NCBI GenBank assembly: GCA_031422915.1
Contig: JANPEK010000135.1
Location: forward strand, 5,895-69,894
Direction of reading: 5' to 3'
Source of the DNA: Phyllobacteriaceae bacterium
GTDB taxonomy: Bacteria; Pseudomonadota; Alphaproteobacteria; Rhizobiales; Rhizobiaceae
Length of the DNA: 64,000 bases
Shown here: piece by piece, positions 11,662 through 27,221 of the stretch
Numbering within the stretch: the first letter of the stretch is position 1
How the letters are laid out: the number at the start of each line of letters is the position of its first letter
Translations under genes and position numbers: made by a program
The notes under the pieces: model-generated
The model's input: the letters and a program-made list of their open reading frames with translations, nothing else
Told to the model about the DNA's origin: nothing
Databases searched by the model: none

Positions 11662-12819
11662 ATGGGAGAGAAAGTTGACACATCCAAGGTGGGCAGCGAG
11701 CCATTGCCTATCAAGGCAGAGCGCGTAATGCAGGTCGAACGGCACGATTATCCAAATCTTGCGCCGCAAGACGCCCCGCGCACGCAGTCGATGCGCGGTT
11801 TTGACGAAATCTACACAGACATTGTCGATTATATCGTCCGCTGCACGCACCGTATTTGGGACGAACGCGACATCGGGTTGATCTATACGCATTACACCCA
11901 CAACTGCGTTCTATACGGCACAACAGGTACGATCTATACGCGCGAAGAAATTGTCCGCGATACGATCCAGCGGCTTGTTTCCTTCCCGGAACGACGCGGA
12001 ATGGCGACGCATGTTGTCTGGAAAGGCAATGACAGGGAAGGTTTTTACACCTCGCATCTGGTGACAGGAACCGGAAGGCACAGCCAGAATGGCCACTTGG
12101 GTGCCGCGACGGGACGCGCTTTCACCTCGCGCACGATTGCGGACTGCATGATCTTTGAAAACAAGATTTATCGCGAGTGGGTGGTGGCCGATACCACTGC
12201 CATTCTGCAGCAACTGGGACTAGACGTGCAGGGCTACGCGGCTCGCATCGCTGCGTCCGCGTTCGATAAAGGCATGGTTTCGCTGGATATTGGTGAAAAC
12301 CGTCACATGATCGGCCAATACCCGCCGGAAGCCGAGGCAGACACATCGATCGCATCGACTGAGCTGGAGCGCTACACGCTGCGTTGGCTGCACGATGTTT
12401 TCAACCGCAAAATGCTCGGATTGATCCCCAAAGTTTATGCGCCGACGGTGCAGTATCACGGACCCTTGATGGCAGAGCTCTACGGTCATGCCTCGGTCAT
12501 TCACCAGACGCTTGGCCTGATTGGCTCGTTGCCGGATGCAGCATTCACCCCACAACATATTTGCACCACCCCTTGCGAAGAGGGCGGAGAGAAGGTTGCT
12601 GTCCGCTGGATCATGGAAGGGCATCATCTCGGCTTTGGGACGCTTGCGCATCTGGGCGCGCCGACTGGCAAACGTGTTCAGATCATGGGCATCAGCCATT
12701 ACCATTACAAGAATGGCAAGATTGTTGACGAGTGGCGGGTATTCGATGAAGCGTCTGCGTTGGTCCAGGTGAAACTGGCGCAAATGGCGGATGTGAAGGC
12801 AGCGTCCCTCACTGTGTGA
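11662..12819 (+). CDS. Tandem SnoaL-like / NTF2-superfamily protein (two ester-cyclase-like repeats)
   Basis: 385 aa with two similar halves (..IVRCTHRIWDERDIGLIYTHYTHNCVLYG.. and ..LRWLHDVFNRKMLGLIPKVYAPTVQYHGP..GKRVQIMGISHYHYKNGKIVDEWRVFDE), the pattern of SnoaL-like polyketide-cyclase-fold proteins. RBS AGGAGAAG. Confidence 0.65.
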   Translation: MGEKVDTSKVGSEPLPIKAERVMQVERHDYPNLAPQDAPRTQSMRGFDEIYTDIVDYIVRCTHRIWDERDIGLIYTHYTHNCVLYGTTGTIYTREEIVRDTIQRLVSFPERRGMATHVVWKGNDREGFYTSHLVTGTGRHSQNGHLGAATGRAFTSRTIADCMIFENKIYREWVVADTTAILQQLGLDVQGYAARIAASAFDKGMVSLDIGENRHMIGQYPPEAEADTSIASTELERYTLRWLHDVFNRKMLGLIPKVYAPTVQYHGPLMAELYGHASVIHQTLGLIGSLPDAAFTPQHICTTPCEEGGEKVAVRWIMEGHHLGFGTLAHLGAPTGKRVQIMGISHYHYKNGKIVDEWRVFDEASALVQVKLAQMADVKAASLTV

Positions 12820-12844
12820 TTTCATCTGCATAAGTCACAATGCG

Positions 12845-12880
12845 ATGCCCGGGTCCTGCCAACGACCCGGGCATTTTTCT
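12845..12880 (+). terminator. Rho-independent terminator after the SnoaL-like gene
   Basis: ATGCCCGGGTC-ctgccaac-GACCCGGGCAT followed by TTTTT; an 11-bp perfect GC-rich stem. Confidence 0.8.
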
Positions 12881-12918
12881 GCCAACGCACGGGCGAGCGC
12901 CATGCGCGCACTTAGTGT

Positions 12919-12934
12919 TTGCATTCGTATGCAA
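12919..12934. promoter_or_regulatory. LacI-type operator candidate O2 (upstream of the ABC binding-protein gene)
   Basis: TTGCATTCGTATGCAA, a 16-bp palindrome with one mismatched pair and a central CG, 84 nt upstream of the ATG at 13018. Confidence 0.55.
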
Positions 12935-13017
12935 AAGCTGCTTATCTTACGTCAGCCACACAAGAGGGCGTATCGGAGTCCGGCTATCAAGCCGTGAACC
13001 TGCAGAGAGGACAAGCG

Positions 13018-14274
13018 ATGAACATGATGGTGAAACGGAACCTTGCGCTGGGCGCGGTCAGCCTTATGGCTTTGACACTTGGCACGGGAATGGCGATAGC
13101 GGCCTGCGCCATTGATGGGGCGGGATCTGTCCGCATTCTGTCCAATGACTTTGAAGCGCTTCGCGCGGTAAACGACGCGGCGGCAACCTGCGCCAGCGGC
13201 ACGGTCACTGTAACCGCCAACGCCTCGGCGGAACACAAGAATATCCAGGGGCCGGCCCTTTCGGCCAACCCCGCAGAGTATACTGTCGCCGTCGTCGCCA
13301 ACAACTCGATTGTGCCACTTTTGAATGACGGGCTCATTCGTTCGCTTGACGACCTGGTTGCAAAATATGGCGCGTCGCTCCAGCCGAACCAGTTGATCAA
13401 GATTGACGGCAAGGTCATGGCCGTTGCCTTCATGGGCAATGGCCAGCATTTGTTTTACCGCAAGGATATTCTGGAAAAGGCCGGTCTGGATGTCCCCAAA
13501 TCCTATGAAGACATTCTCGCGGATGCGCAGGTGATCAAGGACAAGGGACTGATGGAGCATCCACTGGCCGCATCCGACAAGCCGGGCTGGGACCTCGCGG
13601 CAGAGTTCGTCAACATGTATCTGGGCACTGGCGGCGAGTTTTTTGCCAATGGCACTGCAGAGCTTGCCATCGACAATGACAATGGACGCAAGGTTCTTGA
13701 GACCATGCGTGGCATGACCAAATTCATGAATCCCGACTATCTGACCTATGATGCCAATGAACTTAACAAGGTCTGGGATGCCGGCAAAGTGGCGATGATG
13801 GTTCAGTGGGGTTCACTCGCCAGCGCCGCGACAGATCCGGTGAAAGCCAACGCGGACGTCGCCAAGAATACAGGATTTGCCGCGGCACCAACGATCAATG
13901 GCGGCACTCTTCCGGCAGCGGCTCTGTGGTGGGATGGCTTCACCATCGCCAAGAACATCTCGGATGAAGACGCTGCTGCGTCATTCCAGGCGATTGTCCA
14001 TGGCATCGGCCCTGAAACAGTGTCCGCAAATGCCGACAAAGCCACGTGGCTCGTTGCAGGCTATAATCCAGGTCCTGCCGCTGTGGGTGTAATCGGCAAT
14101 GCCACAGGTGGCGCACGCGCATATCCGATGCAGCCCTATATGGGTCTGTTGCACACAGCGCTGTCATCCGAGTTGGCAGACTTTATTGCCGGCAAGGAAG
14201 AAGCCGATCAAGCTTTGGCTGATGTCAAAGCCGCTTATGATGCCGCAGCAAAAGAGGGCGGGTTCCTGAAATAA
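13018..14274 (+). CDS. ABC transporter substrate-binding protein (family 1, carbohydrate type)
   Basis: Start chosen at MNMMVKRNLALGAVSLMALTLGTGMAIAA (signal peptide; RBS GAGAGGA). The mature part has typical CUT1 solute-binding-protein composition. The tracked ORF starts earlier at 12919. Confidence 0.85.
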   Translation: MNMMVKRNLALGAVSLMALTLGTGMAIAACAIDGAGSVRILSNDFEALRAVNDAAATCASGTVTVTANASAEHKNIQGPALSANPAEYTVAVVANNSIVPLLNDGLIRSLDDLVAKYGASLQPNQLIKIDGKVMAVAFMGNGQHLFYRKDILEKAGLDVPKSYEDILADAQVIKDKGLMEHPLAASDKPGWDLAAEFVNMYLGTGGEFFANGTAELAIDNDNGRKVLETMRGMTKFMNPDYLTYDANELNKVWDAGKVAMMVQWGSLASAATDPVKANADVAKNTGFAAAPTINGGTLPAAALWWDGFTIAKNISDEDAAASFQAIVHGIGPETVSANADKATWLVAGYNPGPAAVGVIGNATGGARAYPMQPYMGLLHTALSSELADFIAGKEEADQALADVKAAYDAAAKEGGFLK

Positions 14275-14298
14275 GGCCAGTTCTTCCCGGCCTTTCGG

Positions 14299-14331
14299 GG
14301 TCCGGCTACGCTTGTCACAGCCGGACCTTTT
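14299..14331 (+). terminator. Intercistronic stem-loop with short T-run between binding-protein and permease genes (attenuator / mRNA stabiliser)
   Basis: GGTCCGGCT-acgcttgtcac-AGCCGGACC followed by TTTT. Confidence 0.5.
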
Positions 14332-14431: not shown

Positions 14432-15463
14432 ATGCCGCATCGCACATTTTTCACATTCATCCTCCCGTCACTCGTGGCAATGCTTTTGTTCATCTCATTG
14501 CCGATCATGTCGGTCGTGGTGCAGTCGCTGTTTCAGGAACACGAGGCAATCTTGACCACAGTCGAGAATTGCGGACCGTTCGGTTGCGAAAAGCAGACCA
14601 AAGTGGATACGGAGGCGATGGAAAAGCTGAAGGGTGAAAGTCCGCTCGGGCAGTTCGCAGGCCTGTCCAATTACCTGAACCGCAACCATCTCGCCTTGCA
14701 GGAACTTGGTCAGATCTTCAGCACCGGCACTGGGCTGCGGAATATTGCTGCCAAAATCATGAATCTGCCATTCTACCGCGCGCTTGCCTTCACACTGGTC
14801 TACTGCTTCACGGTAACACCTCTGGCGATGGCGCTTGGCTTTGCTGTTGCCATGGCGGTCAATTCGCTGCCGCGCTTCTGGCGCGGGCCGGCAATTTTCA
14901 TTTCAATCCTGCCGATGATCATAACGCCTCTCATCGGCTCGTTGATCTTGGCATGGATGTTCAATCCTGCGGGCATTTTCGGTGCTTTGTTGCAAAATCT
15001 GACCGGTGATCCGACGCTTTCCCTTCGCGCGTCTCCGGTCCTGACGTGGGTGGTTCTTTTGGGCTACGGCATCTGGACCAACGGCCCGTTTTCGTTCGTG
15101 GTCTTCTATGCGGGACTGCAGACGGTGCCGCAGGACACGCTGGAGAGCGCCAGGATTGACGGGGCCACCCGTTGGGAAGCGACACGGTTCGTGATCATCC
15201 CGCACCTGATGCCCTTGGCGACATTTGTCGCGCTGGTGCAGTTGATGGACAATTTCCGCGTCTTTGAACCCATCGTCGGCTTTTCGGCGGAAGCCAATGC
15301 GACTTCGCTGTCGTGGCTTGTCTACAATGATCTGGTCAGTCAGGACGCGCAGCAATTTGGATCGGCGGCGGCAACGTCAGTGCTGACAATCATCGGCGTG
15401 GTGGTTCTGCTGACACCGGTCTTGATCCGCACATGGCGCGACTTCTCGCGAAAGGTAGTGTGA
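14432..15463 (+). CDS. ABC transporter permease (MalF/UgpA-like)
   Basis: Start at MPHRTFFTFILPSLVAMLLF. Multiple TM segments; the EAA-type loop reads ..ESARIDGATRWEATRFVIIPHL. Confidence 0.9.
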   Translation: MPHRTFFTFILPSLVAMLLFISLPIMSVVVQSLFQEHEAILTTVENCGPFGCEKQTKVDTEAMEKLKGESPLGQFAGLSNYLNRNHLALQELGQIFSTGTGLRNIAAKIMNLPFYRALAFTLVYCFTVTPLAMALGFAVAMAVNSLPRFWRGPAIFISILPMIITPLIGSLILAWMFNPAGIFGALLQNLTGDPTLSLRASPVLTWVVLLGYGIWTNGPFSFVVFYAGLQTVPQDTLESARIDGATRWEATRFVIIPHLMPLATFVALVQLMDNFRVFEPIVGFSAEANATSLSWLVYNDLVSQDAQQFGSAAATSVLTIIGVVVLLTPVLIRTWRDFSRKVV

Positions 15464-15464
15464 C

Positions 15465-16346
15465 ATGTCTGATCAGGTAAACAGCCGCCCGACTGGCTTG
15501 AAACTGTTGACCAACGCCTTTCTGGCTATTTGGCTTCTGGCGGCGCTGTTCCCGTTTGCGTGGACGGTATGGGGCAGCTTCAAGGTAGAGCCGGATTTCT
15601 TTTCCCGTGAAAGCTTCTGGAACGCCATCGTCGGCACACGAACGCAAATGCAAACCGGCGGTGCTTTCACACTGAATGGGTATGAGGGCGCGTGGATCAA
15701 AAATGAATTCTGGCGCTCCGCGATCAACACCGGAATCGTCACAATTTCCGTCACCTGCATATCGCTCTTTGTCGGCACGCTCGGCGGCTATGCGTTGGCG
15801 CGCTCCGGTTTTCGCTACGCATTCTGGATATTGATCGCGGCGCTCGTCTTCCGAGCCATGCCGCACATCACGCTGGTTTCGGGCTATCTGCTTCCATTTT
15901 TTGAATTGAACATCTGGGGCGTGATGCCGACCACCATCATAGTTCTGGTGGCTATCAACCAGCCCTTCACGCTCTGGATGCTGCATTCGTTTTTTCTGTC
16001 AATTCCCAAAGACCTTGACGAAAGCGCGATGGTGGACGGCTGCACGCGGTTCCAGGCGTTTCGCATGGTTATCATTCCGGTGATGTGGCCGGGCGTGGTG
16101 ACCACCGGTCTGTTCAGCTTCCTGCTCGGCTACAATGACTTTGCCGTCACGTCGATGCTTCTGAGCCAGGACAATCAAACGATGATCCCGAAGATCGCGT
16201 CGTTCCTTGGCTCGATACAGAACGAAGGCAACGTCATGTTCGCAGTCGCGGCTGTTGTTTCAGCCACTGTTCCACTCTTCATTCTCGTCCTCTTCTTCCA
16301 GCGCCAGATCGTTTCCGGTCTGACCGCCGGTGCTGTCAAAGGATAA
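15465..16346 (+). CDS. ABC transporter permease (MalG/UgpE-like)
   Basis: Begins 1 nt after the previous stop. The EAA loop reads DESAMVDGCTRFQAFRMVIIPVMWPG. Confidence 0.9.
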   Translation: MSDQVNSRPTGLKLLTNAFLAIWLLAALFPFAWTVWGSFKVEPDFFSRESFWNAIVGTRTQMQTGGAFTLNGYEGAWIKNEFWRSAINTGIVTISVTCISLFVGTLGGYALARSGFRYAFWILIAALVFRAMPHITLVSGYLLPFFELNIWGVMPTTIIVLVAINQPFTLWMLHSFFLSIPKDLDESAMVDGCTRFQAFRMVIIPVMWPGVVTTGLFSFLLGYNDFAVTSMLLSQDNQTMIPKIASFLGSIQNEGNVMFAVAAVVSATVPLFILVLFFQRQIVSGLTAGAVKG

Positions 16347-16349: not shown

Positions 16350-17411
16350 ATGGCCCGCATCCGCCTCAACAATGTCGCAAAACGCTGGGGTACCGTTACC
16401 GGCGTCAGCGACGTCAATCTCGATATTGCCGACGGTGAGTTCGTGGTTTTTCTCGGACCGTCCGGCTGCGGCAAGACCACGACCATGCGCATGATCGCCG
16501 GTCTTGAAAGCATCACTGAAGGAGAAATCTGGATCGGTGATCGCTTGGTAAACAAGTTGGAGCCGAAGGACCGGGACATATCCATGGTGTTTCAAAGCTA
16601 TGGGCTTTACCCGAACCTGACGGTCTACGAAAATATCCGCTTTCCGCTGCGTGTGCGCCGCATTCCAAAAGCCGAACATCACGAGCGTGTCATGCGCGCC
16701 TCGGCCATGGTGGAGCTGGGTGATTATCTTGACCGCCGCCCGGCGGCTCTTTCAGGTGGTCAGCGCCAGCGCGTGGCGCTCGCCCGCGCCATTGTGCGCG
16801 AACCAAACGCATTCCTGATGGACGAACCACTGTCAAACCTTGACGCCAAACTGCGCGTCTCGACGCGGGCGCAAATCAAGAACCTGCACCACACGCTGAA
16901 AACGACAACTGTCTACGTCACCCACGACCAGATTGAAGCCATGACGTTGGCCGATAGAGTGGTCGTCATGAGCCATGGCCGGATGCAGCAGATCGGAACG
17001 CCAACGGAAATCTACGACCGTCCATCCAACACCTTCGTCGCAGGGTTCATTGGTTCACCGGCGATGAACCTCATTCCCGGTCATCTGACAGGCGGGACGT
17101 TCCGCGCTGACGGCATGCAGGTTTCAGGACTGACCGCCCCGGACGGGCCGGTCACACTCGGCTTCCGGGCCGAGGACGTAGCGACTGCAAATGGCGGATC
17201 CACCGGACAAATCAACGCTCCGGTCTATTCGATGGAGCTGTTGGGCGATGCCACGCTTGTGACTGTGCGGGTCGGCGAGGCATTGGTTGCCACAAAAGCA
17301 ACAAAGGATTTTCGTATTGGCATCGGCGCACCGTTGTCGATCAGCGTCCCCGCCTCCGTTGTACATCTATTTGACAAATCGACCGGCTCCCGCCTTTCAA
17401 ACCTGCGATAA
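16350..17411 (+). CDS. ABC transporter ATP-binding protein (MalK/UgpC-like)
   Basis: Walker A GPSGCGKTT, signature LSGGQRQRVALARA, Walker B FLMDEPLSNLD, and a C-terminal TOBE-like regulatory domain. Confidence 0.95.
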   Translation: MARIRLNNVAKRWGTVTGVSDVNLDIADGEFVVFLGPSGCGKTTTMRMIAGLESITEGEIWIGDRLVNKLEPKDRDISMVFQSYGLYPNLTVYENIRFPLRVRRIPKAEHHERVMRASAMVELGDYLDRRPAALSGGQRQRVALARAIVREPNAFLMDEPLSNLDAKLRVSTRAQIKNLHHTLKTTTVYVTHDQIEAMTLADRVVVMSHGRMQQIGTPTEIYDRPSNTFVAGFIGSPAMNLIPGHLTGGTFRADGMQVSGLTAPDGPVTLGFRAEDVATANGGSTGQINAPVYSMELLGDATLVTVRVGEALVATKATKDFRIGIGAPLSISVPASVVHLFDKSTGSRLSNLR

Positions 17412-17461: not shown

Positions 17462-18490
17462 ATGTCATCCATGGCGAATGATAAGGTAACTTCACTGGAG
17501 GTGGCAGCGTTGGCTGGAGTCAGCCAGTCAGCCGTCAGCCGCGTGTTCACACTCGGATCCTCTGTCAGTCCAAAGACCGCGGAAAAAGTCCGCGCTGCGG
17601 CCGAAAAGTTGGGGTATCGGCCAAACGTTTTGGCAAGATCCCTGAAATCCGGCAAGAGCCGTATAATCGGCTTGGTCGTGGCCTATCTGGAGAACTATTT
17701 TTACCCTGAAGTTGTCGAACGGCTGTCGGGTGAACTTCAAAAAGAGGGCTACCACGTCTTGGTCTTTCTGGCCCCGGTTTCGACTGTCAACGTCGATCAG
17801 GTGGTGCGCGAACTGTTGGACTATCAGGTCGACGGGATTGTCATGGCATCGATTTCGATGTCGTCAGACCTGGCGGAGCGTTGCCAGGCAACCGGAATAC
17901 CGGTGGTGCTCTTCAACCGCGCCCTGCCAGATCCGCGCCTGTCCTCGGTTACAACGGACAATTTCAAAGGCGGCCGAATGCTGGCTGATTATCTTATCTC
18001 GCTCGGCCATGAGAATATCGCCTACATTGCAGGGTTCTCCGGCGCCTCCACCCAAATCGACCGCGAAGCCGGCTTTCGTGCGGGACTGAAAGCTGCCGGC
18101 AAAGAACTCTATGCGCGCGCCGAGGGGAATTTCAGCTATCCGGATGCGCAACGCGCGACGCGACAATTGTTTGCCACAACGCACCGCCCGGACGCTGTTT
18201 TTGTTGCCAACGATCATATGGCTTTTGCAGTCATGGATGTGCTGCGCTTTGAAATGGGGTTGAATGTGCCGCGTGATGTCTCGGTTGTTGGCTTCGATGA
18301 TGTGCCTTTGGCAGCTTGGCCGGCTTACAGCCTCACCACAGTGCGTCAGCATGTCGATCAGATGGTCGCTGAAACCGTGCAGATGTTGATTTCATCAATT
18401 TCCGAACGGACAGGGGAATCAAAGCGCGTTGTGCTCGACGGTTCGCTCATCATCCGGGGGTCCACACGCAAGCATCGGAGCGTCAGTTGA
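17462..18490 (+). CDS. LacI-family transcriptional regulator
   Basis: Start at MSSMANDKVTSLEVAALAGVSQSAVSRVF (LacI HTH) after RBS AGGGGA; a periplasmic-binding-fold effector domain follows. The tracked ORF starts at TTG 17417. Confidence 0.9.
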   Translation: MSSMANDKVTSLEVAALAGVSQSAVSRVFTLGSSVSPKTAEKVRAAAEKLGYRPNVLARSLKSGKSRIIGLVVAYLENYFYPEVVERLSGELQKEGYHVLVFLAPVSTVNVDQVVRELLDYQVDGIVMASISMSSDLAERCQATGIPVVLFNRALPDPRLSSVTTDNFKGGRMLADYLISLGHENIAYIAGFSGASTQIDREAGFRAGLKAAGKELYARAEGNFSYPDAQRATRQLFATTHRPDAVFVANDHMAFAVMDVLRFEMGLNVPRDVSVVGFDDVPLAAWPAYSLTTVRQHVDQMVAETVQMLISSISERTGESKRVVLDGSLIIRGSTRKHRSVS

Positions 18491-18519
18491 CTGAATTGGG
18501 TGAGGAGGCATTCCAGCGC

Positions 18520-18654
18520 ATGCTGGAAAAGCATGGCTTGAGGCTTGATGAAAAAGCCTTTGCTGCAGCGTTACACGGTGCACGAGACTTAAGGACCGGG
18601 CTGGCGCAACTGACCCACACACGAAATTACTCTCAGGCCAGAATAGATGATTAA
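18520..18654 (+). CDS. Unannotated small ORF (44 aa from ATG 18520, 52 aa from TTG 18496), overlapping the amidase start; candidate GatC/AtzG-like small subunit
   Basis: MLEKHGLRLDEKAFAAALHGARDLRTGLAQLTHTRNYSQARIDD. GAGGAGG lies at 18501-18507. The stop (18652-18654) overlaps the amidase ATG (18647) by 8 nt. Below the 60-aa cutoff of the ORF track. Confidence 0.4.
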   Translation: MLEKHGLRLDEKAFAAALHGARDLRTGLAQLTHTRNYSQARIDD

Positions 18655-20002
18655 CGCCGCCGACCTGTCATTGTTCGAGGCAGCTGAGGCTTTAAGGTCA
18701 GGCACATTGACATCCTGCCAATTGGTTGAGGCCACGTTGACCCGCATAGTGGCCCGGACAGAACTTGCGGCATTCACATATCTGGCAGCCGATGCAATGG
18801 CTCAGGCACACACCGCAGATGCCCGCCTTGCCACAGGCGAAGACCCGGGGCCGCTTTGCGGCATACCTGTTGCAATCAAGGACTTGATCGACGTAGCAGG
18901 GCAACCAGCCACCTCGGGTTCCGCTGTGCTCGCCGGACACGTCGCCGAAAGTGATGCACCCTGTGTCGCCGCGCTCAGGGCCAAAGGGGCCGTGTTGATC
19001 GGCAAGCTTGCGACATATGAATTTGCAATGGTCGGCCCGGATATGAACCTGCCAACACCTCCAGCACGAAATCCGTGGAATTTGGCACATACGACAGGCG
19101 GATCTTCGTCGGGATCGGCGGCGGCAGTGGCCGGAGGTTTGGTTCGCTTGGCGCTTGGCACAGACACAGGGGGATCAATCCGCGCACCTGCCGCCTATTG
19201 CGGCTGTGTCGGGCTGAAGCCGAGTTACGACCGCGTCTCGCGCATCGGCGCGTTTCCGCTTTCGCCCTCGCTTGATCACACCGGGCCATTGGCGGCCACC
19301 GTCGCCGAAGCGGCGCTGGGGCTGGACATCATATCCGCCGGACATGTCTGGCGGCCGGCATCCGGTATGATCGGCCAGAGCATTGAAGGCGTTCGTATCG
19401 GATTTGCGCGCAGCTGGTTCGCCGAAGATCCGCAGGCAAGCCCGGCACTGATCTGCGCGATGGATGATGCTGCTGCGACACTGACAATGCTGGGCGCGTG
19501 GGTAAGCCTGATTAACTTGCCGGAATATCTGCCCTACGAGGCGGCGGCGGCGGTCATTCTTCATGCCGAGGCCCTCGCAGGCCACGCGGAACTCATTTCA
19601 ACCAGACAAGCCGACTATGGCCGCCCCACATTGGAACGTCTTGCCATCGGTGCGGCGATTTCAGAGGCAGACCTGTTGGCCGCCCGCGAGGCGGTCGTTC
19701 CACTGACCAAGACGATGAACGCGGCAATGGATGGATATGATCTGATCCTGACCGCAGCGACACTAACGCCTGCTTTGCCGTTTTCAGCGTTCGACGGCGA
19801 CCGTGCAGTTTGGACACCGATGCGAACAATACCCTTCAACCTGACAGGACATCCCGCCCTCTCACTGCCTTGCGGCTTTGACAAAGGGCTGCCGCTTGGC
19901 ATGCAACTGGTCGCGGCGGTTAGCGCGGAAGACATGTTGTGCCGTGTGGGCCATGCGTTCGAGCGGGCGACAGACCATTCGGCTCAGCGCCCGCCTTTTT
20001 AA
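18647..20002 (+). CDS. Amidase-signature family enzyme (GatA/AtzE-like)
   Basis: Amidase signature region ..GIPVAIKDLIDVAGQPATSGS.. and GGSSSGSAAAVAGGLVRLALGTDTGGSIRAPAAYCG. Confidence 0.9.
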   Translation: MINAADLSLFEAAEALRSGTLTSCQLVEATLTRIVARTELAAFTYLAADAMAQAHTADARLATGEDPGPLCGIPVAIKDLIDVAGQPATSGSAVLAGHVAESDAPCVAALRAKGAVLIGKLATYEFAMVGPDMNLPTPPARNPWNLAHTTGGSSSGSAAAVAGGLVRLALGTDTGGSIRAPAAYCGCVGLKPSYDRVSRIGAFPLSPSLDHTGPLAATVAEAALGLDIISAGHVWRPASGMIGQSIEGVRIGFARSWFAEDPQASPALICAMDDAAATLTMLGAWVSLINLPEYLPYEAAAAVILHAEALAGHAELISTRQADYGRPTLERLAIGAAISEADLLAAREAVVPLTKTMNAAMDGYDLILTAATLTPALPFSAFDGDRAVWTPMRTIPFNLTGHPALSLPCGFDKGLPLGMQLVAAVSAEDMLCRVGHAFERATDHSAQRPPF

Positions 20003-20005: not shown

Positions 20006-21301
20006 TCAGCGTTTTTGCATGCGATCAAGCCGCAGCTGTGCTGCGCGACGATGGCCTTCAAGACCCTCGCTTGCGGCCTGACGGGCGGCTGGAGGAGCCA
20101 CAGCCAGAACCCCGCGCTCATCAAGCCACTGGTGCGTGGCGATCTTGACGTAGGCACCCACCCATAGACCACCTGTGTAGCGGCCCGCGGCCATGGTCGG
20201 CAGTGTGTGGTTGGTGCCCGAGCACTTGTCGGAATAGACCACGCTCGCAAGTTCGCCAATAAACAGCGAGCCATAGTTGCGCAGTTTCTTGCCGAAATCA
20301 TGCGGATCAGAGGTATGGACCTGCAAATGCTCGGCAGCGATGAAATCGGAATAGGCGATCATTGCCGCCTCGTCTTCACACACCGCTATTTCACCGAACT
20401 CGGCCCACGCCGGCGCCGCCACATGCGCCGTTGACAGGCCTTGAAGCTGCTTTTCGACTTCTGCCAGAACTGCCTCAGCGAGCGGGCGATGCGTGGTGAT
20501 GAGGCCGACACGTGTGCGCACATCATGCTCGGCCTGCGCAAGGAGGTCCGTCGCGATCATCTCGGCGTCGCCGCTTGCATCAGCAAGCACATAAATCTCG
20601 GACGGACCGGCCAGCTGATCAATGCCAACAGGTCCGAACACCTGCCGCTTTGCCTCGTTTACGAATGCATTGCCCGGACCCATGATCTTCATCACTTTCG
20701 GTACGGACTGGGTGCCATAGGCCATGGCTGCAATCGCCTGCGCACCGCCGATGCGGAAAATACGGTCCGCGCCCGACAAATGACAGCCCGCCACCATTGC
20801 TTTATGCGCGTTTGGTGGCAGGCAGGCAATCACTTCGTCAACGCCCGCAACCTTGGCCGGCACAATGGTCATGATCGGCGCGGAAAGCAGCGGAAAGCGT
20901 CCGCCCGGTACATAACAGCCGACCCGCTCGATCGGGATGACGCGGTGCCCCATGAAGACGCCTGGCAGCAGTTCCACCTCCAGCGGCAGGATTGTCGCAA
21001 GCTGCGCTTGTGCAAAGCGGCGGACATTTTCTATGGCAAACTCGGTATCCTTGCGCGTCTGCGGGTCGAGCCGCGCAACCACAGCTTCGCGTTCGCCCAT
21101 CGTCACTTCAAACGCGTCCAATTCGGCCTTGTCGAACTCTTTGGAATAGCGCCGTACCGCATCGTCACCCTTAGCCTTTACGTCTGCAAGAACTTTTGCA
21201 ACGGTGTCTGCGACGAGCTTGTTGTCCCCGTCCGAGCTTCGGGCCGGTGACTTGACCCAAGTGATCTTGTCAACAGGGTAGGCGTGTGGCTGGCTGGACA
21301 T
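20006..21301 (-). CDS. Histidinol-dehydrogenase-family oxidoreductase, paralog 1 (HisD/HpsN-like)
   Basis: ..[93 protein letters not shown]. are conserved HisD-family blocks. No other his genes are nearby. Confidence 0.85.
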
Positions 21302-21359
21302 GGCGCTCCTTTCAGGCCGCTCTGTTCCGTCGGCTCTTTCCAGCGCTTTCTAATCACAA

Positions 21360-21375
21360 TTGCATACGTTTGCAA
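21360..21375. promoter_or_regulatory. LacI-type operator candidate O3 (divergent promoter region of the two HisD-family genes)
   Basis: TTGCATACGTTTGCAA, a 16-bp palindrome with one mismatched pair and a central CG. It lies 59 nt from the minus-strand start (21301) and 185 nt from the plus-strand start (21560). Confidence 0.55.
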
Positions 21376-21559
21376 GATTGGATGTGCACCACTCTGCGGA
21401 AAATCCCGCAAGCGATTAATAACGCAATGTTTTCCGTATTCTGATAGGTCCTATTGGGCAGACACAAAACGTTTCTGTACAAATTCTCGACAAAGGACTT
21501 GCGCAATTATGGCATTCCAGCCTAGTTATATTGCACACGTATTCATACTGGAGTTTGAG

Positions 21560-22870
21560 ATGGCGGTGGTATGGCTGAAGCACGGTAAACCTGTGTTGGA
21601 AAGGGCCGAGGATGATGCCCGCACCCGCGCTACGGTGGAAGCCACGCTCGCGCAGATCGAGACGGGCGGCGATGCCGCAGTCCGGGCCTTGTCGTTGAAG
21701 TTCGACCGATTCGACCGTCCATCCTTCCGCCTTTCGCAATCCGAAATCGAAGCAGCGATGCAGAAGGTTTTGCCACGCGACATGGAAGACATTCGCTTTG
21801 CGCAAACGCAAATTCGCCGCTTTGCCGAAGCGCAGAAGGCTTCGATGCGCGACATCGAGATTGAAACCGAGCCCGGCGTTATTCTGGGTCACCGCAACAT
21901 TCCGGTTCAGTCGGTCGGCTGCTATGTGCCCGGCGGCAAATTCCCGATGGTTGCTTCTGCGCACATGTCGGTACTGACCGCAAATGTTGCAGGCGTGCCG
22001 CGCATTGTGGCATCGGCCCCGCCGGTGAACGGCGAGCCGCACCCGGCCATTGTTGCTGCCATGCAGATGGCCGGTGCGCATGAAATTTATGTGCTCGGCG
22101 GCATGCAGGCAGTTGGTGCCATGGCGCTTGGAACCGAAACCATCAAACCCGTTGATATGCTGGTCGGTCCGGGTAATGCCTTTGTCGCCGAAGCCAAGCG
22201 CCAGCTTTATGGACGCGTCGGCATTGACCTGTTTGCGGGGCCGACCGAAACAATGGTCATTGCAGATGATACTGTCGACGCCGAACTGTGCGCGACCGAT
22301 CTTCTCGGCCAGGCCGAGCACGGCTATAATTCGCCTTCGGTTCTGGTGACCATTTCGCGCAAACTGGCCGAAGGCACGTTGGCTGAGATCGAGCGTCTGT
22401 TGAAGATATTGCCCACTGCTGCGACCGCGTCAGTAAGCTGGGCTGATTACGGCGAGATCATCCTTTGCGACACGCATGACGAGATGCTCACTGTAGCCAA
22501 CGATATCGCGTCTGAGCACGTGCAGGTGATGACCGACCGCGACGACTGGTATCTGGAAAACATGCACAGCTACGGCGCGCTGTTTCTGGGTGCCCGCACC
22601 AATGTTGCCAATGGCGACAAGGTGATCGGCACCAACCATACTTTGCCGACAAAGAAAGCCGGGCGCTACACCGGCGGCCTTTGGGTCGGCAAGTTCCTGA
22701 AGACGCATAGCTATCAGCGCATCACCACCGATGAAGCGGCGGCACGGATCGGTGCCTATGGATCGCGGCTCTGCATGCTGGAGGGCTTTGTCGGCCACGC
22801 GGAACAGTGCAATGTCCGCGTTCGCCGCTATGGCGGCCAGAATGTTCCATATGGAGCGGCGGCTGAATGA
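21560..22870 (+). CDS. Histidinol-dehydrogenase-family oxidoreductase, paralog 2
   Basis: Start at [45 protein letters not shown] (RBS GGAG). Conserved blocks [85 protein letters not shown] and GTNHTLPT. The tracked ORF (21284) over-extends into the promoter region. Confidence 0.85.
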
Positions 22871-23631
22871 CCCTGCCGCGCACCCCTTCGTTTCGCCTCG
22901 ATGGCGGCTGCGCGCTGGTGACCGGTGCTTCGTCGGGCATTGGGCTGGCGGCGGCGGTGGCGTTGGCAGAGCAAGGCGCACAGGTCTGGCTTGCCGCCCG
23001 GCGTGAGGCTGAATTGCAGGACGTAGCGAGGACCATGCAGGCAGAGGGCTTCACCGTCCATGTGCTGCCGCTCGATATTTCCGATGTGGCGAAAACTGAA
23101 GTTGCGCTTGCCACATTGCCGACCTTTGATGTTCTGGTCAATTCAGCCGGCATCGCGCGTCACGGTCCTGCAATTGACACCACCCAGGAAGATTTTGACG
23201 ATGCCGTCAGCCTCAATTTCCGGGCTGCTTATTTCCTGACCCGCACAGTCGCCAAGCGGCTGATCGCAGCGGGAAAGCCCGGAAGCCTGATCAACATTTC
23301 CTCGCAGATGGCCCATGTCGGCGGCATCGACCGCGCTGTTTATTCCGCAAGCAAACATGCGTTGGAAGGCATGACCAAAAGCATGGCCATCGAATGGGGC
23401 CCGCATGGCATCCGCGTGAACACCATCGCCCCGACATTCATCCGCACGCCCATGACGGCTGCCACCTTTTCAAACCCCGATCGCGCGCAATGGATTGCAT
23501 CCAAGATCAAGCTTGGCCGCGTGGGAGAGCTTGAAGACATTATGGGAGCAGTCGCCTTTCTGGCCTCTGACGCCGCAAGCCTCATCACCGGAACCTCACT
23601 CATCGTCGATGGCGGCTGGACCGCTGACTGA
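22867..23631 (+). CDS. Short-chain dehydrogenase/reductase (SDR)
   Basis: TGASSGIG cofactor motif, NSAG, catalytic [20 protein letters not shown] overlap with the preceding gene. Confidence 0.9.
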
Positions 23632-23642: not shown

Positions 23643-24611
23643 ATGACACCGCAGGAAATGGAAGCGCGCATTGTCCGCTACGGCGATCTGAAGCCGTGCA
23701 AAACCGCGTTCATCGATGCGCACACACCGGGCTCGAACCGCAAGGAGAACTTTACCATTATCGGCGGCGGTGTCTCGGAATCGCCTGACCAGCACGTCCA
23801 CATCTGCGACACGCCGGGATTCAACATCGGCGCCGCTGGCCAGCCGCCCGCGTGCCGCAACTCGCTGCACACGCACCGCACAGCGGAAGTGTTCTTCGTC
23901 CTTTCAGGCCGCTGGCGGTTCTTTTGGGGCCGGTATGGCACCGCGGGTGAATTCATAGCCGAGGAAGGCGACATATTTAACATTCCGACAGGCATATTCC
24001 GCGCGTTTGAAAACGTCGGCACCGACTACGGAATGATCATGGCCATTCTCGGCGGCGATGATGCGGGCGGCGGTGTGGTCTGGGCGCCGCAGGTGATAAC
24101 CGACGCCAAGGACTACGGATTGATACTGGGCAAGAACGGCAAGCTGTACGATACCAAGAAGGGCCAGAATCTCCCTGATGGCGTTTTGCCCATGCCGCTC
24201 TTGACCGATGAAGAGTTGAAGGAATTTCCAGAGCCAACCACGGCAGAAGTCGTCCCCAACTGCGTTGCCCGTTATTGGGATTTGATGGCTCTCAGTGACC
24301 GTCAACCGGCCAAGGTGATCGGCGAAAATGGCAAACTGCGCGACCGCCCGGGCTTCGAGGTGGAATTCCTGTCGCGCAACTCGATCCCAGACACCGCCTA
24401 CACGCTCGACCGGCATGAAATCCTGATGCCGATGCGCGGACACTGGCGGCTGACATGGGATGGCGGCACCACTGCGCTCAACCCCGGCGATACAGCGGCC
24501 ATCCCGCCAGGCGTTTCGCACAGCCTCAGCCCGTCGATGACCGGCGAAGCCTCGCTATACCGTGTCATGAACACCGCGGACCCCGCCGGGGCCTCTAGAC
24601 GCCTGCTTTAA
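23643..24611 (+). CDS. Bicupin-domain protein
   Basis: First cupin motif NSLHTHRTAEVFFVLSGRWRF..EEGDIFNIPTGIFRAFEN. Second barrel ..MPMRGHWRLTWDGGTTALNPGDTAAIPPGVSHSL. Confidence 0.75.
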   Translation: MTPQEMEARIVRYGDLKPCKTAFIDAHTPGSNRKENFTIIGGGVSESPDQHVHICDTPGFNIGAAGQPPACRNSLHTHRTAEVFFVLSGRWRFFWGRYGTAGEFIAEEGDIFNIPTGIFRAFENVGTDYGMIMAILGGDDAGGGVVWAPQVITDAKDYGLILGKNGKLYDTKKGQNLPDGVLPMPLLTDEELKEFPEPTTAEVVPNCVARYWDLMALSDRQPAKVIGENGKLRDRPGFEVEFLSRNSIPDTAYTLDRHEILMPMRGHWRLTWDGGTTALNPGDTAAIPPGVSHSLSPSMTGEASLYRVMNTADPAGASRRLL

Positions 24612-24623
24612 AGGAGCGTGAAC

Positions 24624-25745
24624 ATGTCCCTTCTCGCAACCCACGTCGGCTCGCTTCCCCGCAGCCAGGAGGTCGTCGACTTCCTCTTTGCCCGCGAGAA
24701 GGGCCAGTCTTATGATCCCGCAGACTTTGACGCCTGCATGAGCGCGGCGGTCCATGAAAATGTCCGCCGCCAGAAGCTGGCGGGCATAGACATTGTCTCG
24801 GATGGCGAGGCGTCGAAAATCAGCTACGCCACCTACGTCAAAGACCGCTATACCGGTTTTGACGGCGACAGCCCGCGCAACGCGCCTTCTGATCTGAAGC
24901 TCTTTCCAACCTTTCTCGACCGCCTGGCCAAGGAAGGCGGCACGCCGCAATATGCGCGACCCCAATGTGTCGGCCCTGTCGCGTCCAAGGGCCAGGGAGA
25001 GCTACAGAAGGACATTGCCAACCTGAAATCCGCCATGGCGGCGCATGGAGTCGAGCGCGGTTTCATGAACGCGGCATCTCCCGGTGTCATCAGCCTGTTC
25101 CTGCAAAATGCCCACTACACAAACCGCGAGGCCTATCTGTCGGCGCTGGCTGACGCGATGTCTGGAGAGTATCGCACGATCCTGGACGCAGGGCTTGAGC
25201 TTCAGCTCGACTGCCCCGACCTTGCGCTCTCGCGGCACATGTTGTTTGCAGACCTGTCTGACGCAGAATTTCTCAAGATTGCCGCCACGCATGTCGAAGC
25301 TCTGGAGCTGGCGCTCAAGGGCCTGCCGCGCGAGCGCATCCGCCTGCATATCTGCTGGGGCAACTATGAGGGCCCGCATGTCTGCGACATCGATATGGCA
25401 AAGGTCTTTCCACTCTTGATGAAGGTTCCGGCGACCTACATTTTGTTCGAAACAGCCAACCCGCGCCACGGCCATGAGTGGACAGTCTTCCGTGACCGCG
25501 CGGCAGAAATACCTGACGACAAGGTGCTTATTCCCGGCGCAGTAGATACCACGACGAATTTTGTTGAGCATCCGGATCTCGTTGCACAACGGCTTGAGCG
25601 CTTCACCGGCATCCTCGGCAAGGAACGCGTCATCGCCGGTTCGGACTGTGGCTTTGGCACGTTCGCAGGCTATGGCGCGGTCGATCCGGAAATCGCCTGG
25701 GCCAAGCTTGCAGCGCTGAAAGAAGGCGCGCGGCGGGTGAAATGA
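24624..25745 (+). CDS. Cobalamin-independent methionine synthase II family protein (MetE C-terminal-domain-like)
   Basis: MSLLATHVGSLPRSQEVVDF..GIDIVSDGEASKISYATYV..HICWGNYEGPH..AGSDCGFGTF matches the MetE-like/URO-D-fold family pattern. RBS AAGGAG 7 nt upstream. Confidence 0.8.
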   Translation: MSLLATHVGSLPRSQEVVDFLFAREKGQSYDPADFDACMSAAVHENVRRQKLAGIDIVSDGEASKISYATYVKDRYTGFDGDSPRNAPSDLKLFPTFLDRLAKEGGTPQYARPQCVGPVASKGQGELQKDIANLKSAMAAHGVERGFMNAASPGVISLFLQNAHYTNREAYLSALADAMSGEYRTILDAGLELQLDCPDLALSRHMLFADLSDAEFLKIAATHVEALELALKGLPRERIRLHICWGNYEGPHVCDIDMAKVFPLLMKVPATYILFETANPRHGHEWTVFRDRAAEIPDDKVLIPGAVDTTTNFVEHPDLVAQRLERFTGILGKERVIAGSDCGFGTFAGYGAVDPEIAWAKLAALKEGARRVK

Positions 25746-26431
25746 CGCCACTTGTGCTGATCCCCGGCATGATGTGCGACGCACGGATGTGGGGCGGCTT
25801 TTCTGCTGGCCCCCGCCATATGATTCACGCCCTTCCAACAGAGCACGATACTGTTCAGGCACTTGCTGCTGCCATTCTTGAAGCCGCACCTGAGCGCTTT
25901 GCTCTTGCCGGCCTGTCCATGGGTGGCATTGTCGCGATGGAGATTTTCGCGCAGGCTCCCGAACGGGTCGAGCGGCTTGCGCTTCTTGACACCAATCCGC
26001 GCGCGGAAACCCCGGAAGCGCGAGCGCGCCGTGCACCACAAATCGCCAGAGCGCTCGCAGGCGGACTTTCGGCGGTGCTGCGCGAAGATATGAAGCCGAA
26101 TTATCTCGCGCCAAGTCCCAACAAGAAGGCCATACTTGACCTGTGCATGGACATGGCACTTGCGCTGGGTCCGGAGGTTTTCGCCCGCCAGTCCGCAGCC
26201 TTGCGCGACCGTCGCGATCAAACCGCCACCCTTGCCGCGTTCAAACGGCCGGCGCTGGTGCTGATGGGCGAGGAGGATAGCCTGTGCCCGCGCGACCGGC
26301 ATGATGAGATGCATGCGCTCATGCCGCAGTCGCTCTTCGTAATCGTTCCGGGCGCAGGCCATCTGCCGACACTGGAAAACCCCGAATACACTGCCACCCA
26401 TCTGATGGACTGGCTCTCAACCCCACGATAG
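25742..26431 (+). CDS. Alpha/beta-fold hydrolase
   Basis: PLVLIPGMMCDARMW.., nucleophile elbow GLSMGG, C-terminal PGAGHLPTLENP. ATGA overlap with the MetE-like gene. Confidence 0.8.
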   Translation: MTPLVLIPGMMCDARMWGGFSAGPRHMIHALPTEHDTVQALAAAILEAAPERFALAGLSMGGIVAMEIFAQAPERVERLALLDTNPRAETPEARARRAPQIARALAGGLSAVLREDMKPNYLAPSPNKKAILDLCMDMALALGPEVFARQSAALRDRRDQTATLAAFKRPALVLMGEEDSLCPRDRHDEMHALMPQSLFVIVPGAGHLPTLENPEYTATHLMDWLSTPR

Positions 26432-26438
26432 GACCACC

Positions 26439-27221
26439 ATGATCAACACCATGCACGCCCATTTCGCCGCCGGAGGCAAAGCCGTCAACGGCTGGTGCGC
26501 GCTGCCGTCACCGGTCACGGCCGAGATCATGGGTCGACAGGGCTTTGATCTGATGACGGTCGATCTGCAACACGGGCTGATAGATTATCAGATGGCGCTC
26601 ACCATGCTGCAGGTGCTGCAGGGCTTGCCAGCGCCCGTTCTGGCCCGCGTGCCGTGGAATGAGCCAGGCATCGTGATGAAATGCCTTGATGCAGGCTTTC
26701 AAGGCATAATCTGCCCGATGATCAATACGGTCGGCGACGCCGAGCGCCTGGTCCAATCCGCCCGCTACGCGCCCATGGGCAGCCGCTCGTTCGGACCTAT
26801 CCGCGCCAATCTTGTGCATGGCGCGGGCTACGTCAAAACCGCCAACGCCACAGTTATGGTCTTCGCCATGATCGAGACGCGCGAGGCGCTTGGCAATCTT
26901 GATGCAATCCTCGCCGTCAAAGGCATCGACGGCATATACGTCGGCCCCTCCGATCTTGGGTTGTCGATGGGACATGAACCCACACTCGATCCTTCAGCGC
27001 CGGAAGTGCTGGATGCAATCACCGCCATCGCTGCCCGCACCAAAGCGGCGGGGCGACTGGCAGGCGTTCACACGGGATCGGCAGAGATGGTCCAGCGCGC
27101 CTTCTCGCAAGGTTATGACTTCGCCTCGCTGTTGACGGACGCAAGGATGTTCACATCCGCCATTGCCGCCCAGCTCGCAGCCGTCCGTCACACCACCGCT
27201 AAAGATGTAAAGGGCTACTAG
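26439..27221 (+). CDS. HpcH/HpaI-family aldolase (2-keto-3-deoxy-acid aldolase type)
   Basis: ..VNGWCALPSPVTAEIMGRQGFDLMTVDLQHG..LARVPWNEPGIVMKCLDAGFQGIICPMI..AMIETREALGNLDAILAVKGIDGIYVGPSDL. Confidence 0.85.
   Translation: MINTMHAHFAAGGKAVNGWCALPSPVTAEIMGRQGFDLMTVDLQHGLIDYQMALTMLQVLQGLPAPVLARVPWNEPGIVMKCLDAGFQGIICPMINTVGDAERLVQSARYAPMGSRSFGPIRANLVHGAGYVKTANATVMVFAMIETREALGNLDAILAVKGIDGIYVGPSDLGLSMGHEPTLDPSAPEVLDAITAIAARTKAAGRLAGVHTGSAEMVQRAFSQGYDFASLLTDARMFTSAIAAQLAAVRHTTAKDVKGY

Follow-up and report, generated by a model that had tools for sequence, protein, structure and literature searches.

A conserved alphaproteobacterial gene cluster of undescribed enzyme combination, possibly for the import and oxidative breakdown of a small polyhydroxy compound

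Flavonols are cleaved by quercetinase together with an esterase, and Dke1 and acireductone dioxygenase are related cupin dioxygenases that act on enol-diones. The lower pathway of protocatechuate 4,5-cleavage and gallate degradation comprises a lactone hydrolase, a hydratase and an RraA-like 4-carboxy-4-hydroxy-2-oxoadipate/4-hydroxy-4-methyl-2-oxoglutarate (CHA/HMG) aldolase (LigI-LigJ-LigK). Genes that recall these systems, as well as genes that recall the methionine synthase MetE, the AtzE-AtzG-AtzH proteins and the dehydrogenase HpsN, lie together at positions 11662-27221 of a 64,000-nucleotide stretch of contig JANPEK010000135.1 from a Phyllobacteriaceae bacterium (assembly GCA_031422915.1, contig positions 5,895 to 69,894), which is called the window here. 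HpsN, the 3-dehydrogenase of 2,3-dihydroxypropane-1-sulfonate (DHPS), is defined by a motif G-R-Y-A/S-H whose final residue, His126, binds zinc or the sulfonate (PMC11382572), and DHPS is taken up by a tripartite ATP-independent periplasmic (TRAP) system (PMC13335735).

The enzyme combination of the cluster is undescribed and is built from known superfamilies, several of which are represented by new subfamilies. The reading favored here, which we regard as having about an even chance of being correct, is a LacI-repressed regulon that imports a small polar polyhydroxy compound with a hydroxymethyl group and breaks it down oxidatively, with pyruvate as the end product. The substrate is probably cyclic or enolic and of algal, cyanobacterial, fungal or plant origin. 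Gene families were assigned by open reading frame (ORF) listing and Pfam scans, which gave 15 genes (g01-g15, Table 1). A preliminary description of this DNA, made from the letters alone, had listed these enzyme and transporter families and had matched the module to no named pathway; the Pfam and NCBIfam searches of each product verified every family in that list. The NCBIfam scores were compared with each model's own cut-off, and no equivalog model for a pathway enzyme attained it; the generic hisD domain model alone passed. Full-text literature searches (by gene family, and for mycosporine/gadusol, HpsN and Swit_5033-5036) found neither a paper on the cluster nor an orthologous cluster with a characterized substrate, and the module thus still matches no described route. 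Judged from motifs read in the sequence and interpreted from family knowledge, the catalytic signatures are intact in all of the enzymes.

The conservation of the gene set was assessed from its signature enzyme, the bicupin (g12). An alignment scan with one genome per species yielded at least 570 confirmed bicupin relatives, 80 of these loci were taken and the window proteins were mapped onto them by tblastn; 51 of the loci have full 10-kb flanks. The core histidinol dehydrogenase (HisD)-family gene HisDb (g10) lies beside the bicupin in 37 of these 51 loci. Among the 37 linked loci, the LacI regulator is present in 35 and the short-chain dehydrogenase/reductase (SDR) in 31, the ATP-binding cassette (ABC) permeases, the alpha/beta hydrolase and the tandem SnoaL protein in 29 each, an aldolase in 26 (RraA-like in 19 and HpcH in 7) and the MetE-like protein in 23. 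HisDb and the SDR are always adjacent. The amidase and the second HisD paralog, HisDa (g09), are found in 12 of the 37, always together (12/12) and never one alone. The commonest layout is substrate-binding protein (SBP), permease 1, permease 2, ATPase, HisDb, SDR, LacI, SnoaL, bicupin, MetE-like protein, hydrolase and RraA-like protein. The fuller "type II" layout of the window is mostly that of a Rhodobacter-like clade from freshwater; in Rhodobacter sp. SY28-1 the gene order is identical except that the SnoaL gene is missing, and a 49-aa ORF, the amidase, both HisD paralogs and HpcH are all present.

The gene set is syntenic in Rhodobacterales, in Hyphomicrobiales and, more distantly, in Sphingomonadales, which contradicts a co-occurrence confined to this replicon; the block is more than a random assembly. 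Variants of the cluster were found in Rhizobium sp. SSA_523, Roseibium aggregatum, Sinorhizobium medicae and, at lower identity, Novosphingobium sp. EMRT-2. Carriers are mainly free-living marine and freshwater Rhodobacterales and diverse Hyphomicrobiales, in which the cluster lies on chromosomes and chromids. Cultured carriers include S. medicae WSM419, Roseibium aggregatum, Cypionkella aquatica, Neogemmobacter tilapiae and Paracoccus sediminis. At the DNA level, PLSDB contained nothing near-identical to the block, the best match being 76% identical over part of it, so that the source replicon is not among its entries; no close PLSDB match was found for the two stretches compared, which span window positions 11662-47000.

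The uptake genes vary between carriers. The Roseibium aggregatum plasmid (L004) has a three-gene TRAP transporter at 7818-10618 between LacI and HisDb; it also carries a second LacI gene and lacks the MetE-like gene. On the Novosphingobium sp. EMRT-2 plasmid (L086) a TonB-dependent receptor and a major facilitator superfamily (MFS) transporter stand in place of the ABC system, beside GH95 and GH127 glycosidase genes. The insertion of a TRAP system, a type that carries organic acids, and the replacement by TonB/MFS show that the enzymes and not the transporter define the pathway, and suggest that acidic forms are also taken up.

A shared operator links the parts of the cluster. The generic palindrome TTGCANNCGNNTGCAA, with a central CG, occurs in three exact copies in the window compared with 0.03 expected. 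The operator statistics were taken from this generic test only, since a degenerate pattern derived from the sites themselves would be circular. Two exact copies lie in the cluster, TTGCATTCGTATGCAA in front of the SBP gene and TTGCATACGTTTGCAA between the HisD genes, and the third, TTGCAATCGATTGCAA at 55900, lies in the divergent promoter region of a myo-inositol-type cluster and not in this one. Some 80 bp before g01 lies TTGCATACGTATGCGC, a site that looks like the two exact ones and is not significant alone. In other loci, 39 exact copies were found in 34 of 85, and 30 of them lie at most 100 bp from a mapped gene start, nearly all at equivalent promoter positions. Fourteen of the 30 precede the transporter operon, nine before the SBP gene and five before the ATPase gene (L001, L016, L024, L038, L041, L079, L080, L085 and others), six lie 56-60 bp from the HisDa start (L003, L006, L013, L017, L018, L023), and eight are 19-64 bp upstream of solitary bicupin genes in marine roseobacter genomes. 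Because the palindromes occupy cluster promoters here and equivalent positions in the 34 other loci, the blocks appear to be co-regulated as one regulon, with g06 as the predicted binder of the sites; the palindromes kept in front of solitary bicupin genes imply that the regulon is dispersed in some genomes.

Solitary bicupin genes were seen in Planktotalea, Planktomarina and other marine roseobacters (L033, L035, L039, L040, L042, L066, L075, L081), at about 10001-10966 of most of the extracted loci, at 3090-4079 in L040 and at 2306-3271 in L042. A KefB-like Na+/H+ exchanger beside the gene in five cases is their sole recurrent neighbor and is uninformative.

The cluster consists of at least four transcription units and is not one operon, because g01 is ended by a strong hairpin with a U-run and HisDa lies on the minus strand. 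None of 200 shuffled sequences folded as well as the g01 hairpin. A consensus promoter and terminator scan gave fewer sites than shuffled sequence and missed this hairpin, and it was not used. Within the units the genes are tightly packed. The permease genes are 1 nt apart (15463/15465) and the second permease and ATPase genes 3 nt apart (16346/16350), the LacI gene and the small ORF g07 share a TTGA overlap, g07 and the amidase gene overlap by 8 nt, ATGA overlaps join HisDb to the SDR gene at 22867 and the MetE-like gene to the hydrolase gene at 25742, and the other gaps within the enzyme operon are 6-12 nt. The LacI gene is co-transcribed with the transporter genes. HisDa is convergent with the amidase gene and divergent from HisDb, the two HisD genes being separated by a 258-bp regulatory region (21302-21559). 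The tight junctions of the preliminary description stand at each position it had given.

Table 1. Genes and regulatory features of the cluster in window coordinates
Feature	Coordinates	Strand	Basis or remark
Operator-like half-degenerate palindrome TTGCATACGTATGCGC upstream of g01	11565..11580		2 mismatches to TTGCANNCGNNTGCAA
g01, tandem SnoaL/NTF2-like protein, 385 aa	11662..12819	+	Pfam SnoaL, 2 stretches, 88 bits
Terminator-like hairpin and U-run after g01	12847..12878	+	12-bp stem, -23.8 kcal/mol, z = -4.4
Exact 16-bp LacI-type palindrome TTGCATTCGTATGCAA	12919..12934		about 85 bp upstream of SBP start
g02, periplasmic SBP, family 1, CUT1 type, with signal peptide	13018..14274	+	weak NCBIfam/PDB matches
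g03, ABC permease 1	14432..15463	+	Pfam BPD_transp_1
g04, ABC permease 2	15465..16346	+	Pfam BPD_transp_1
g05, MalK/UgpC-type ABC ATPase	16350..17411	+	Pfam ABC_tran, OB_MalK, TOBE_2
g06, LacI-family repressor	17462..18490	+	Pfam LacI helix-turn-helix, Peripla_BP_1/3/4
g07, conserved 55-aa ORF	18487..18654	+	tblastn conservation
g08, amidase-signature enzyme	18647..20002	+	Pfam Amidase, 306 bits
g09, HisD-family paralog HisDa	20006..21301	-	Pfam Histidinol_dh, 450 bits
Exact palindrome TTGCATACGTTTGCAA, HisDa/HisDb divergent region	21360..21375		palindrome scan
Degenerate palindrome copy just before HisDb	21531-21546		palindrome scan
g10, HisD-family paralog HisDb	21560..22870	+	Pfam Histidinol_dh, 445 bits
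g11, classical SDR	22867..23631	+	Pfam adh_short_C2, 210 bits
g12, bicupin	23643..24611	+	Pfam Cupin_2, Cupin_1, AraC_binding
g13, single-domain MetE-like (core-MetE) zinc protein, 373 aa	24624..25745	+	Pfam Meth_synt_2
g14, alpha/beta-fold hydrolase, PcaD/BioH-like esterase or lactonase type	25742..26431	+	Pfam Abhydrolase_6/1
g15, HpcH/HpaI class II pyruvate aldolase	26439..27221	+	Pfam HpcH_HpaI, 107 bits

In the proposed pathway, the compound would be imported by the CUT1-type ABC system g02-g05, whose families are observed and whose substrate is predicted. The compound or an intermediate would free the LacI protein g06 from the 16-bp palindromes that precede the SBP gene and lie between the HisD genes, the sites it is expected to bind. 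HisDb, with its motifs intact, would use two NAD+ to oxidize a putative -C(OH)-CH2OH group, giving -C(OH)-COOH, and the SDR coupled to it would oxidize or epimerize a secondary alcohol. SnoaL-type proteins may isomerize, dehydrate or hydrolyze the intermediate, after which the 2-His-1-Glu site of the bicupin would open the skeleton in what is most likely an O2-dependent reaction. The alpha/beta hydrolase would cleave the resulting ester or lactone, and a class II aldolase, HpcH here and RraA-like elsewhere, would give pyruvate. Two optional modules would serve decorated forms of the substrate: the small protein, amidase and HisDa would act on an amide and on a side chain of the amino-alcohol or diol type, and the MetE-like zinc enzyme would move a methyl or alkyl group to a thiol.

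The bicupin is the candidate for the step that opens the skeleton. His-76, His-78 and Glu-82 are invariant in the alignment, and the metal site lies in the N-terminal barrel only, the C-terminal barrel having no HxH. Foldseek comparison of the structure model, of moderate confidence with a predicted local distance difference test (pLDDT) score of 68, confirmed the bicupin fold and gave oxalate decarboxylase (OxdC), MncA, quercetinases, salicylate/gentisate dioxygenases and 3-hydroxyanthranilate 3,4-dioxygenase (3-HAO) as neighbors. These enzymes are O2- or redox-dependent and were counted for an O2-dependent opening of the skeleton as the most likely role. The H-x-H-x3-E site in one barrel, the alpha/beta-fold esterase encoded downstream and the place of quercetinases among the best structural matches recall flavonol cleavage; the identity is however 14-17%, and the context of HisD, MetE-like, SnoaL and aldolase genes is unlike flavonol degradation.

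Several points weigh against the favored regulon. The fourth metal-binding histidine of quercetinase and OxdC is absent from the bicupin, Arg-120 taking its place, and the protein may have a non-oxygenase role such as isomerase or decarboxylase. A template-modeling (TM) score of about 0.45 together with the pLDDT of 68 describes a generic bicupin at most, that is a fold class and not a function. About 14 of the 51 fully flanked bicupin loci have no other cluster genes nearby. The RraA-like proteins that occupy the last position elsewhere have weak similarity to solved chains, and their label as CHA/HMG-type aldolases derives from the Pfam family alone. Moreover, all of the chemical steps are read from family membership, and their order is itself a proposal.

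The leading particular substrate class consistent with the regulon is that of the mycosporine-like amino acids, mycosporines and gadusol. These are the C7-cyclitol sunscreens found in algae, cyanobacteria, fungi and fish eggs. In such a scheme, the SnoaL protein and, where present, the amidase and HisDa would strip or convert amino-acid, amino-alcohol or glutaminol substituents, and HisDb would oxidize C(OH)-CH2OH on the ring, leaving C(OH)-COOH. The MetE-like enzyme would shift the enol-ether methyl group to homocysteine or another thiol, or the methyl group would leave later as a methyl ester. The bicupin would cleave the cyclic reductone or beta-diketone with O2, the hydrolase would remove the ester, and the RraA-like or HpcH aldolase would split 4-carboxy-4-hydroxy-2-oxoadipate into pyruvate and oxaloacetate. 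The scheme would use nearly all of the conserved genes, the SDR being left without a step, and its carbon would be balanced (C8 to C1 + C3 + C4). No catabolic gene cluster for mycosporines or gadusol was found in the literature searched. The argument is a chemical one, and we consider this substrate class quite unlikely.

The transporter, the SDR and the aldolase also bear on a second view of the substrate. The importer has the CUT1-type architecture of a family-1 SBP, two BPD_transp_1 permeases and a MalK-type ATPase with an OB/TOBE tail. The SBP, whose ORF spans 12919-14274 with a likely start codon at 13018, gave no Pfam match at E < 1e-3; it has weak NCBIfam matches to sugar and UgpB SBPs, and its best PDB matches are 5iai ("Sugar ABC transporter") and 4rya ("(Sorbitol)") at E of about 1e-10. 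As these matches are weak, the predicted substrate class is uncertain. The regulator g06 has the LacI helix-turn-helix and the periplasmic-binding-protein fold. In the SDR, TGxxxGxG and YxxxK were read in the sequence; it resembles KduD, gluconate 5-dehydrogenase and L-rhamnose 1-dehydrogenase, and stays under the cut-off of every NCBIfam equivalog (172 compared with 400 for the Lra1 model).

The aldolase g15 scores 107 bits against a cut-off of 25 for HpcH_HpaI (PF03328), and its PDB matches are the hydroxyketoacid aldolase 6r62 of Sphingomonas wittichii (1e-57), GarL (1e-38) and HpcH (1e-37). An RraA-like protein (PF03737) takes the HpcH position in L001, L004, L085 and most other loci. This exchange of HpcH and RraA-like proteins is a non-orthologous swap at the conserved last position, and it supports a conserved pyruvate-releasing last step, either a 4-hydroxy-2-oxoacid cleavage or one of oxaloacetate type. 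The pyruvate-releasing aldolase of the preliminary description is thereby borne out as the conserved last gene. Most cluster versions resemble LigI-LigJ-LigK in ending with a hydrolase and then an RraA-family protein, of which the product would be pyruvate and an oxo-acid, but the cluster hydrolase is of the alpha/beta fold and not an amidohydrolase, a LigJ/GalB hydratase is absent, and the window has HpcH.

These observations could be accommodated by an acyclic polyol or deoxy-sugar route that has no ring cleavage. HisDb would turn the terminal 1,2-diol of a (3-deoxy) alditol into a 2-hydroxy acid and the SDR would convert this to a 2-oxo acid; the SnoaL protein, the bicupin or the MetE-like protein would be a dehydratase or isomerase, the hydrolase would open a lactone, and the aldolase would give pyruvate and an aldehyde. 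The sugar- or polyol-binding relatives of the SBP, the LacI regulator with a MalK-type ATPase, the sugar-dehydrogenase relatives of the SDR, the sugar-acid aldolases GarL and YfaU among the HpcH relatives and the invariable, ATGA-coupled adjacency of HisDb and SDR agree with it. However, none of the 80 loci was found to encode a dehydratase of the enolase, IlvD/Edd or UxuA type, a kinase, or an aldehyde dehydrogenase that could take the second product, and no sugar isomerase is among the top 50 Foldseek matches of the bicupin. The zinc-thiolate MetE-like enzyme would have no role and the bicupin would also go unexplained, and we therefore regard the acyclic route as rather unlikely.

The hydrolase and the bicupin could instead belong to the catabolism of a hydroxymethyl-aromatic or heteroaromatic compound, for example a salicyl-alcohol- or pyridoxine-like molecule or glycoside. 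The HisD enzymes would oxidize a ring -CH2OH beside a phenolic OH, with the two paralogs possibly serving two such groups, the bicupin would be a gentisate/salicylate-type dioxygenase, and the hydrolase and aldolase would complete a lower pathway like that of meta-cleavage. Salicylate/gentisate 1,2-dioxygenases and 3-HAO are indeed among the Foldseek matches of the bicupin. The hydrolase resembles PcaD, its best NCBIfam matches being 3-oxoadipate enol-lactonase and BioH, both under cut-off, and it has the nucleophile elbow GLSMGG. On plasmid pSWIT02 of S. wittichii RW1 (L087, Swit_5033-5036), an SDR-hydrolase-HpcH-bicupin mini-cluster lies between two IS4 copies and adjoins hydroxyquinol-type aromatic degradation genes. 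Yet the bicupin, with H-x-H-x3-E and an arginine for the last histidine, lacks the three-histidine site of gentisate/salicylate dioxygenases. No hydratase, no glycosidase and no enzyme that hydroxylates rings is conserved, the second HisD belongs to the optional module, and a sugar-type ABC importer with LacI is unusual for aromatics. Such a route is improbable.

The MetE-like protein g13 was modeled by AlphaFold2 with a pLDDT of 79, and Foldseek aligned it at a TMq of 0.73 to the C-terminal catalytic domain of Thermotoga maritima MetE (1xpg, 1t7l). The motifs GSLP, DGE, LDCP, HIC, FETAN and SDCG are invariant, as are His-242, Cys-244, Glu-276 and Cys-342 in 28 sequences, which we take to be the zinc ligands known from MetE. 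With 373 aa, g13 does not have the two-domain architecture of about 750 aa and is without the folate-binding N-terminal half, an absence that favors alkylation of a thiol by a donor other than folate. Methionine synthase models score far under their cut-offs (NF003317, 82 compared with 406 bits) or cover a fragment (NF003556, residues 4-79 only). The protein shares the catalytic fold, the HxC...E...C zinc motif, GS[FL]P, DGE and D-x-P with MetE and the core-MetE proteins, including epoxyalkane:coenzyme M transferase, but it sits in a catabolic regulon and is missing from about one-third of cluster versions. Because the zinc and thiol motifs are kept, methyl or alkyl transfer is plausible, in line with the methylated substrate suggested in the preliminary description. 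There are more than 8000 g13 homologues, many of them metagenomic, with 84-93% identity among the matches listed; the exact protein was found on a single 7-kb Logan contig only.

The preliminary description had proposed an amide-linked substrate and had compared the small ORF, the amidase and the SnoaL protein with AtzG, AtzE and AtzH of cyanuric acid mineralization, in which AtzE/AtzG is the 1-carboxybiuret hydrolase. The amidase g08 carries the GGSSSGS motif, its PDB matches are GatA and 6c62, and its best NCBIfam matches are PRK06169 and then the AtzE family, both under cut-off (NF006631, 269 compared with 461 bits; TIGR02715, 260 compared with 426 bits). The ORF g07 was found by tblastn at 51-89% identity in 11 type II loci, its counterpart in Rhodobacter sp. 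SY28-1 being the gene called with 49 aa. No similarity of g07 was detected in Pfam, in NCBIfam or among PDB chains; its position suggests that it could be a GatC/AtzG-like small subunit of the amidase. Translational coupling of a small ORF to an amidase and the presence of an NTF2-superfamily protein are shared with AtzE-AtzG-AtzH, but the cluster has neither AtzD nor AtzF, and its SnoaL protein is a tandem one of a different NTF2 family. The Atz analogy thus did not hold, and the amide is not central, as the amidase and second HisD are optional.

The same holds for the opine- or rhizopine-like substrate proposed there, an amide-linked methylated polyol made by a plant or nodule. The amidase, the MetE-like protein and the sugar-type importer all lie in the window, and the cluster is carried on the S. 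medicae chromid and by other rhizobia. However, the amidase is confined to one-third of the linked loci, most carriers are free-living aquatic Rhodobacterales or other non-symbionts in which the cluster is often chromosomal, no Sinorhizobium meliloti plasmid record is among the matches listed, and the Pfam scans of the cluster revealed no opine oxidase/dehydrogenase or moc-type genes. This origin is very improbable.

Both HisD paralogs are nearer to HpsN than to biosynthetic HisD in the PDB comparison. HisDa best matches the (R)-DHPS dehydrogenase 8wwe (4e-96), and HisDb matches HpsN 8v35 at 9e-110 compared with 5e-75 for true HisD. Both have the PF00815 fold and keep the QAEH and S/GDK motifs, with the zinc-binding Asp; HisDb reads QAEH and GDK, and in its alignment to 8wwe HisDa retains the Glu-His of catalysis together with the HpsN Asp-Lys pair, so the HisD-type activity expected from the preliminary description finds its catalytic motifs intact. 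The HpsN analogy made there fails at the diagnostic histidine, His126, which neither paralog has: HisDa reads GGRFPL where 8wwe reads GGRYSH, and HisDb reads GGKFPM at the same anchor, CYVPGG. The hisD domain model TIGR00069 is passed by HisDa and HisDb with 440 and 428 bits (cut-off 244), whereas the biosynthetic equivalog NF010343 is missed with 265 and 246 (cut-off 647); the biosynthetic motif G-S-A-P-L is in neither paralog, and no his-operon context was found. By these sequence comparisons the two are new subfamilies that most likely still oxidize a primary alcohol beside an OH or NH2 group to a carboxylate. HisDb is coupled to the SDR as HpsN is to HpsO, and a four-electron oxidation of a primary alcohol beside a hydroxyl is likely in both cases, but the cluster has no desulfonating enzymes and its uptake is by a sugar-type ABC system. 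An oxidation of organosulfonates (DHPS or a cysteinolate-like compound), to which the PDB matches and the retained Asp-Lys pair would point, is accordingly highly improbable, as the diagnostic motif is altered and neither the cluster genes nor the related loci within 10 kb include an hpsO/hpsP pair, SuyAB, CuyA or Xsc, and the cluster has no sulfite exporter.

Orthologues of g01 share 60-74% identity in Roseibium, S. medicae, Novosphingobium and L020/L080. RefSeq labels the SnoaL proteins "ester cyclase" with a polyketide Gene Ontology term, which could be read as a biosynthetic cluster with polyketide-type cyclases for a secondary metabolite, but an importer that depends on an SBP, a repressor of the LacI family and a pyruvate aldolase as the last enzyme are hallmarks of catabolism and no polyketide synthase, nonribosomal peptide synthetase, exporter or tailoring genes were found, so that this can hardly be the case. 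Many cluster versions have two or three SnoaL-like genes (for example L001 at 6179-7285 and L016 at 6657-7220), the window one only. There are two tandem SnoaL types, 26-30% identical to each other, and a single-domain type.

Other substrates and routes were tried and rejected. For DHPS/cysteinolate, cyanuric acid, L-ascorbate, pantothenate, pyridoxine, flavonols, apiose, anhydro-sugars and betaine-lipid head groups, either too many of the conserved genes would go unexplained or genes that the route needs are absent. A non-phosphorylative deoxy-sugar route (LRA1-4 type), which consists of a sugar 1-dehydrogenase, a lactonase, an acid-sugar dehydratase and a KD-aldolase and to which the preliminary description had likened part of the set, was dropped because neither the window cluster nor the 80 loci were found to contain any dehydratase family.

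Among the uncharacterized catabolic regulons documented in Alphaproteobacteria, the cluster ranks with the more widespread. Its substrate, once identified, would be a compound on which numerous marine, freshwater and soil bacteria are equipped to feed, and its identification would give functions to new HisD/HpsN, core-MetE, SnoaL and bicupin subfamilies; catabolic methyl transfer by a folate-independent MetE-like enzyme is one possibility. With its operator conserved and a number of its carriers in culture, the cluster is experimentally tractable.

The boundaries of the cluster are sound. Directly upstream are a DUF772 transposase (10010-10792) and a truncated ORF for an alpha/beta hydrolase (9144-9815), which suggests that an insertion or rearrangement took place at the left border. 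Downstream, at 27415-32044, a LysR gene is divergent from a class III aminotransferase gene and is followed by SBP and ABC ATPase genes, an arrangement identical on Logan contig L002. These LysR, aminotransferase and ABC genes were not conserved beside the cluster elsewhere in the tblastn mapping, and they form a separate, probably amine-related uptake and catabolism unit.

Two further regions of the window were noted. The myo-inositol-type cluster at 52130-60138 contains IolB/KduI, a PfkB kinase, a thiamine pyrophosphate (TPP) enzyme that is IolD-like, two GFO/IDH/MocA dehydrogenases, a xylose-isomerase-like TIM barrel and its own LacI-family regulator. The region from about 36780 to 43920 is about 77% identical to Shinella and Ensifer plasmids and chromids, where it is annotated as DhaK and a sugar ABC transporter, and no other long stretch has plasmid relatives that are even moderately close.

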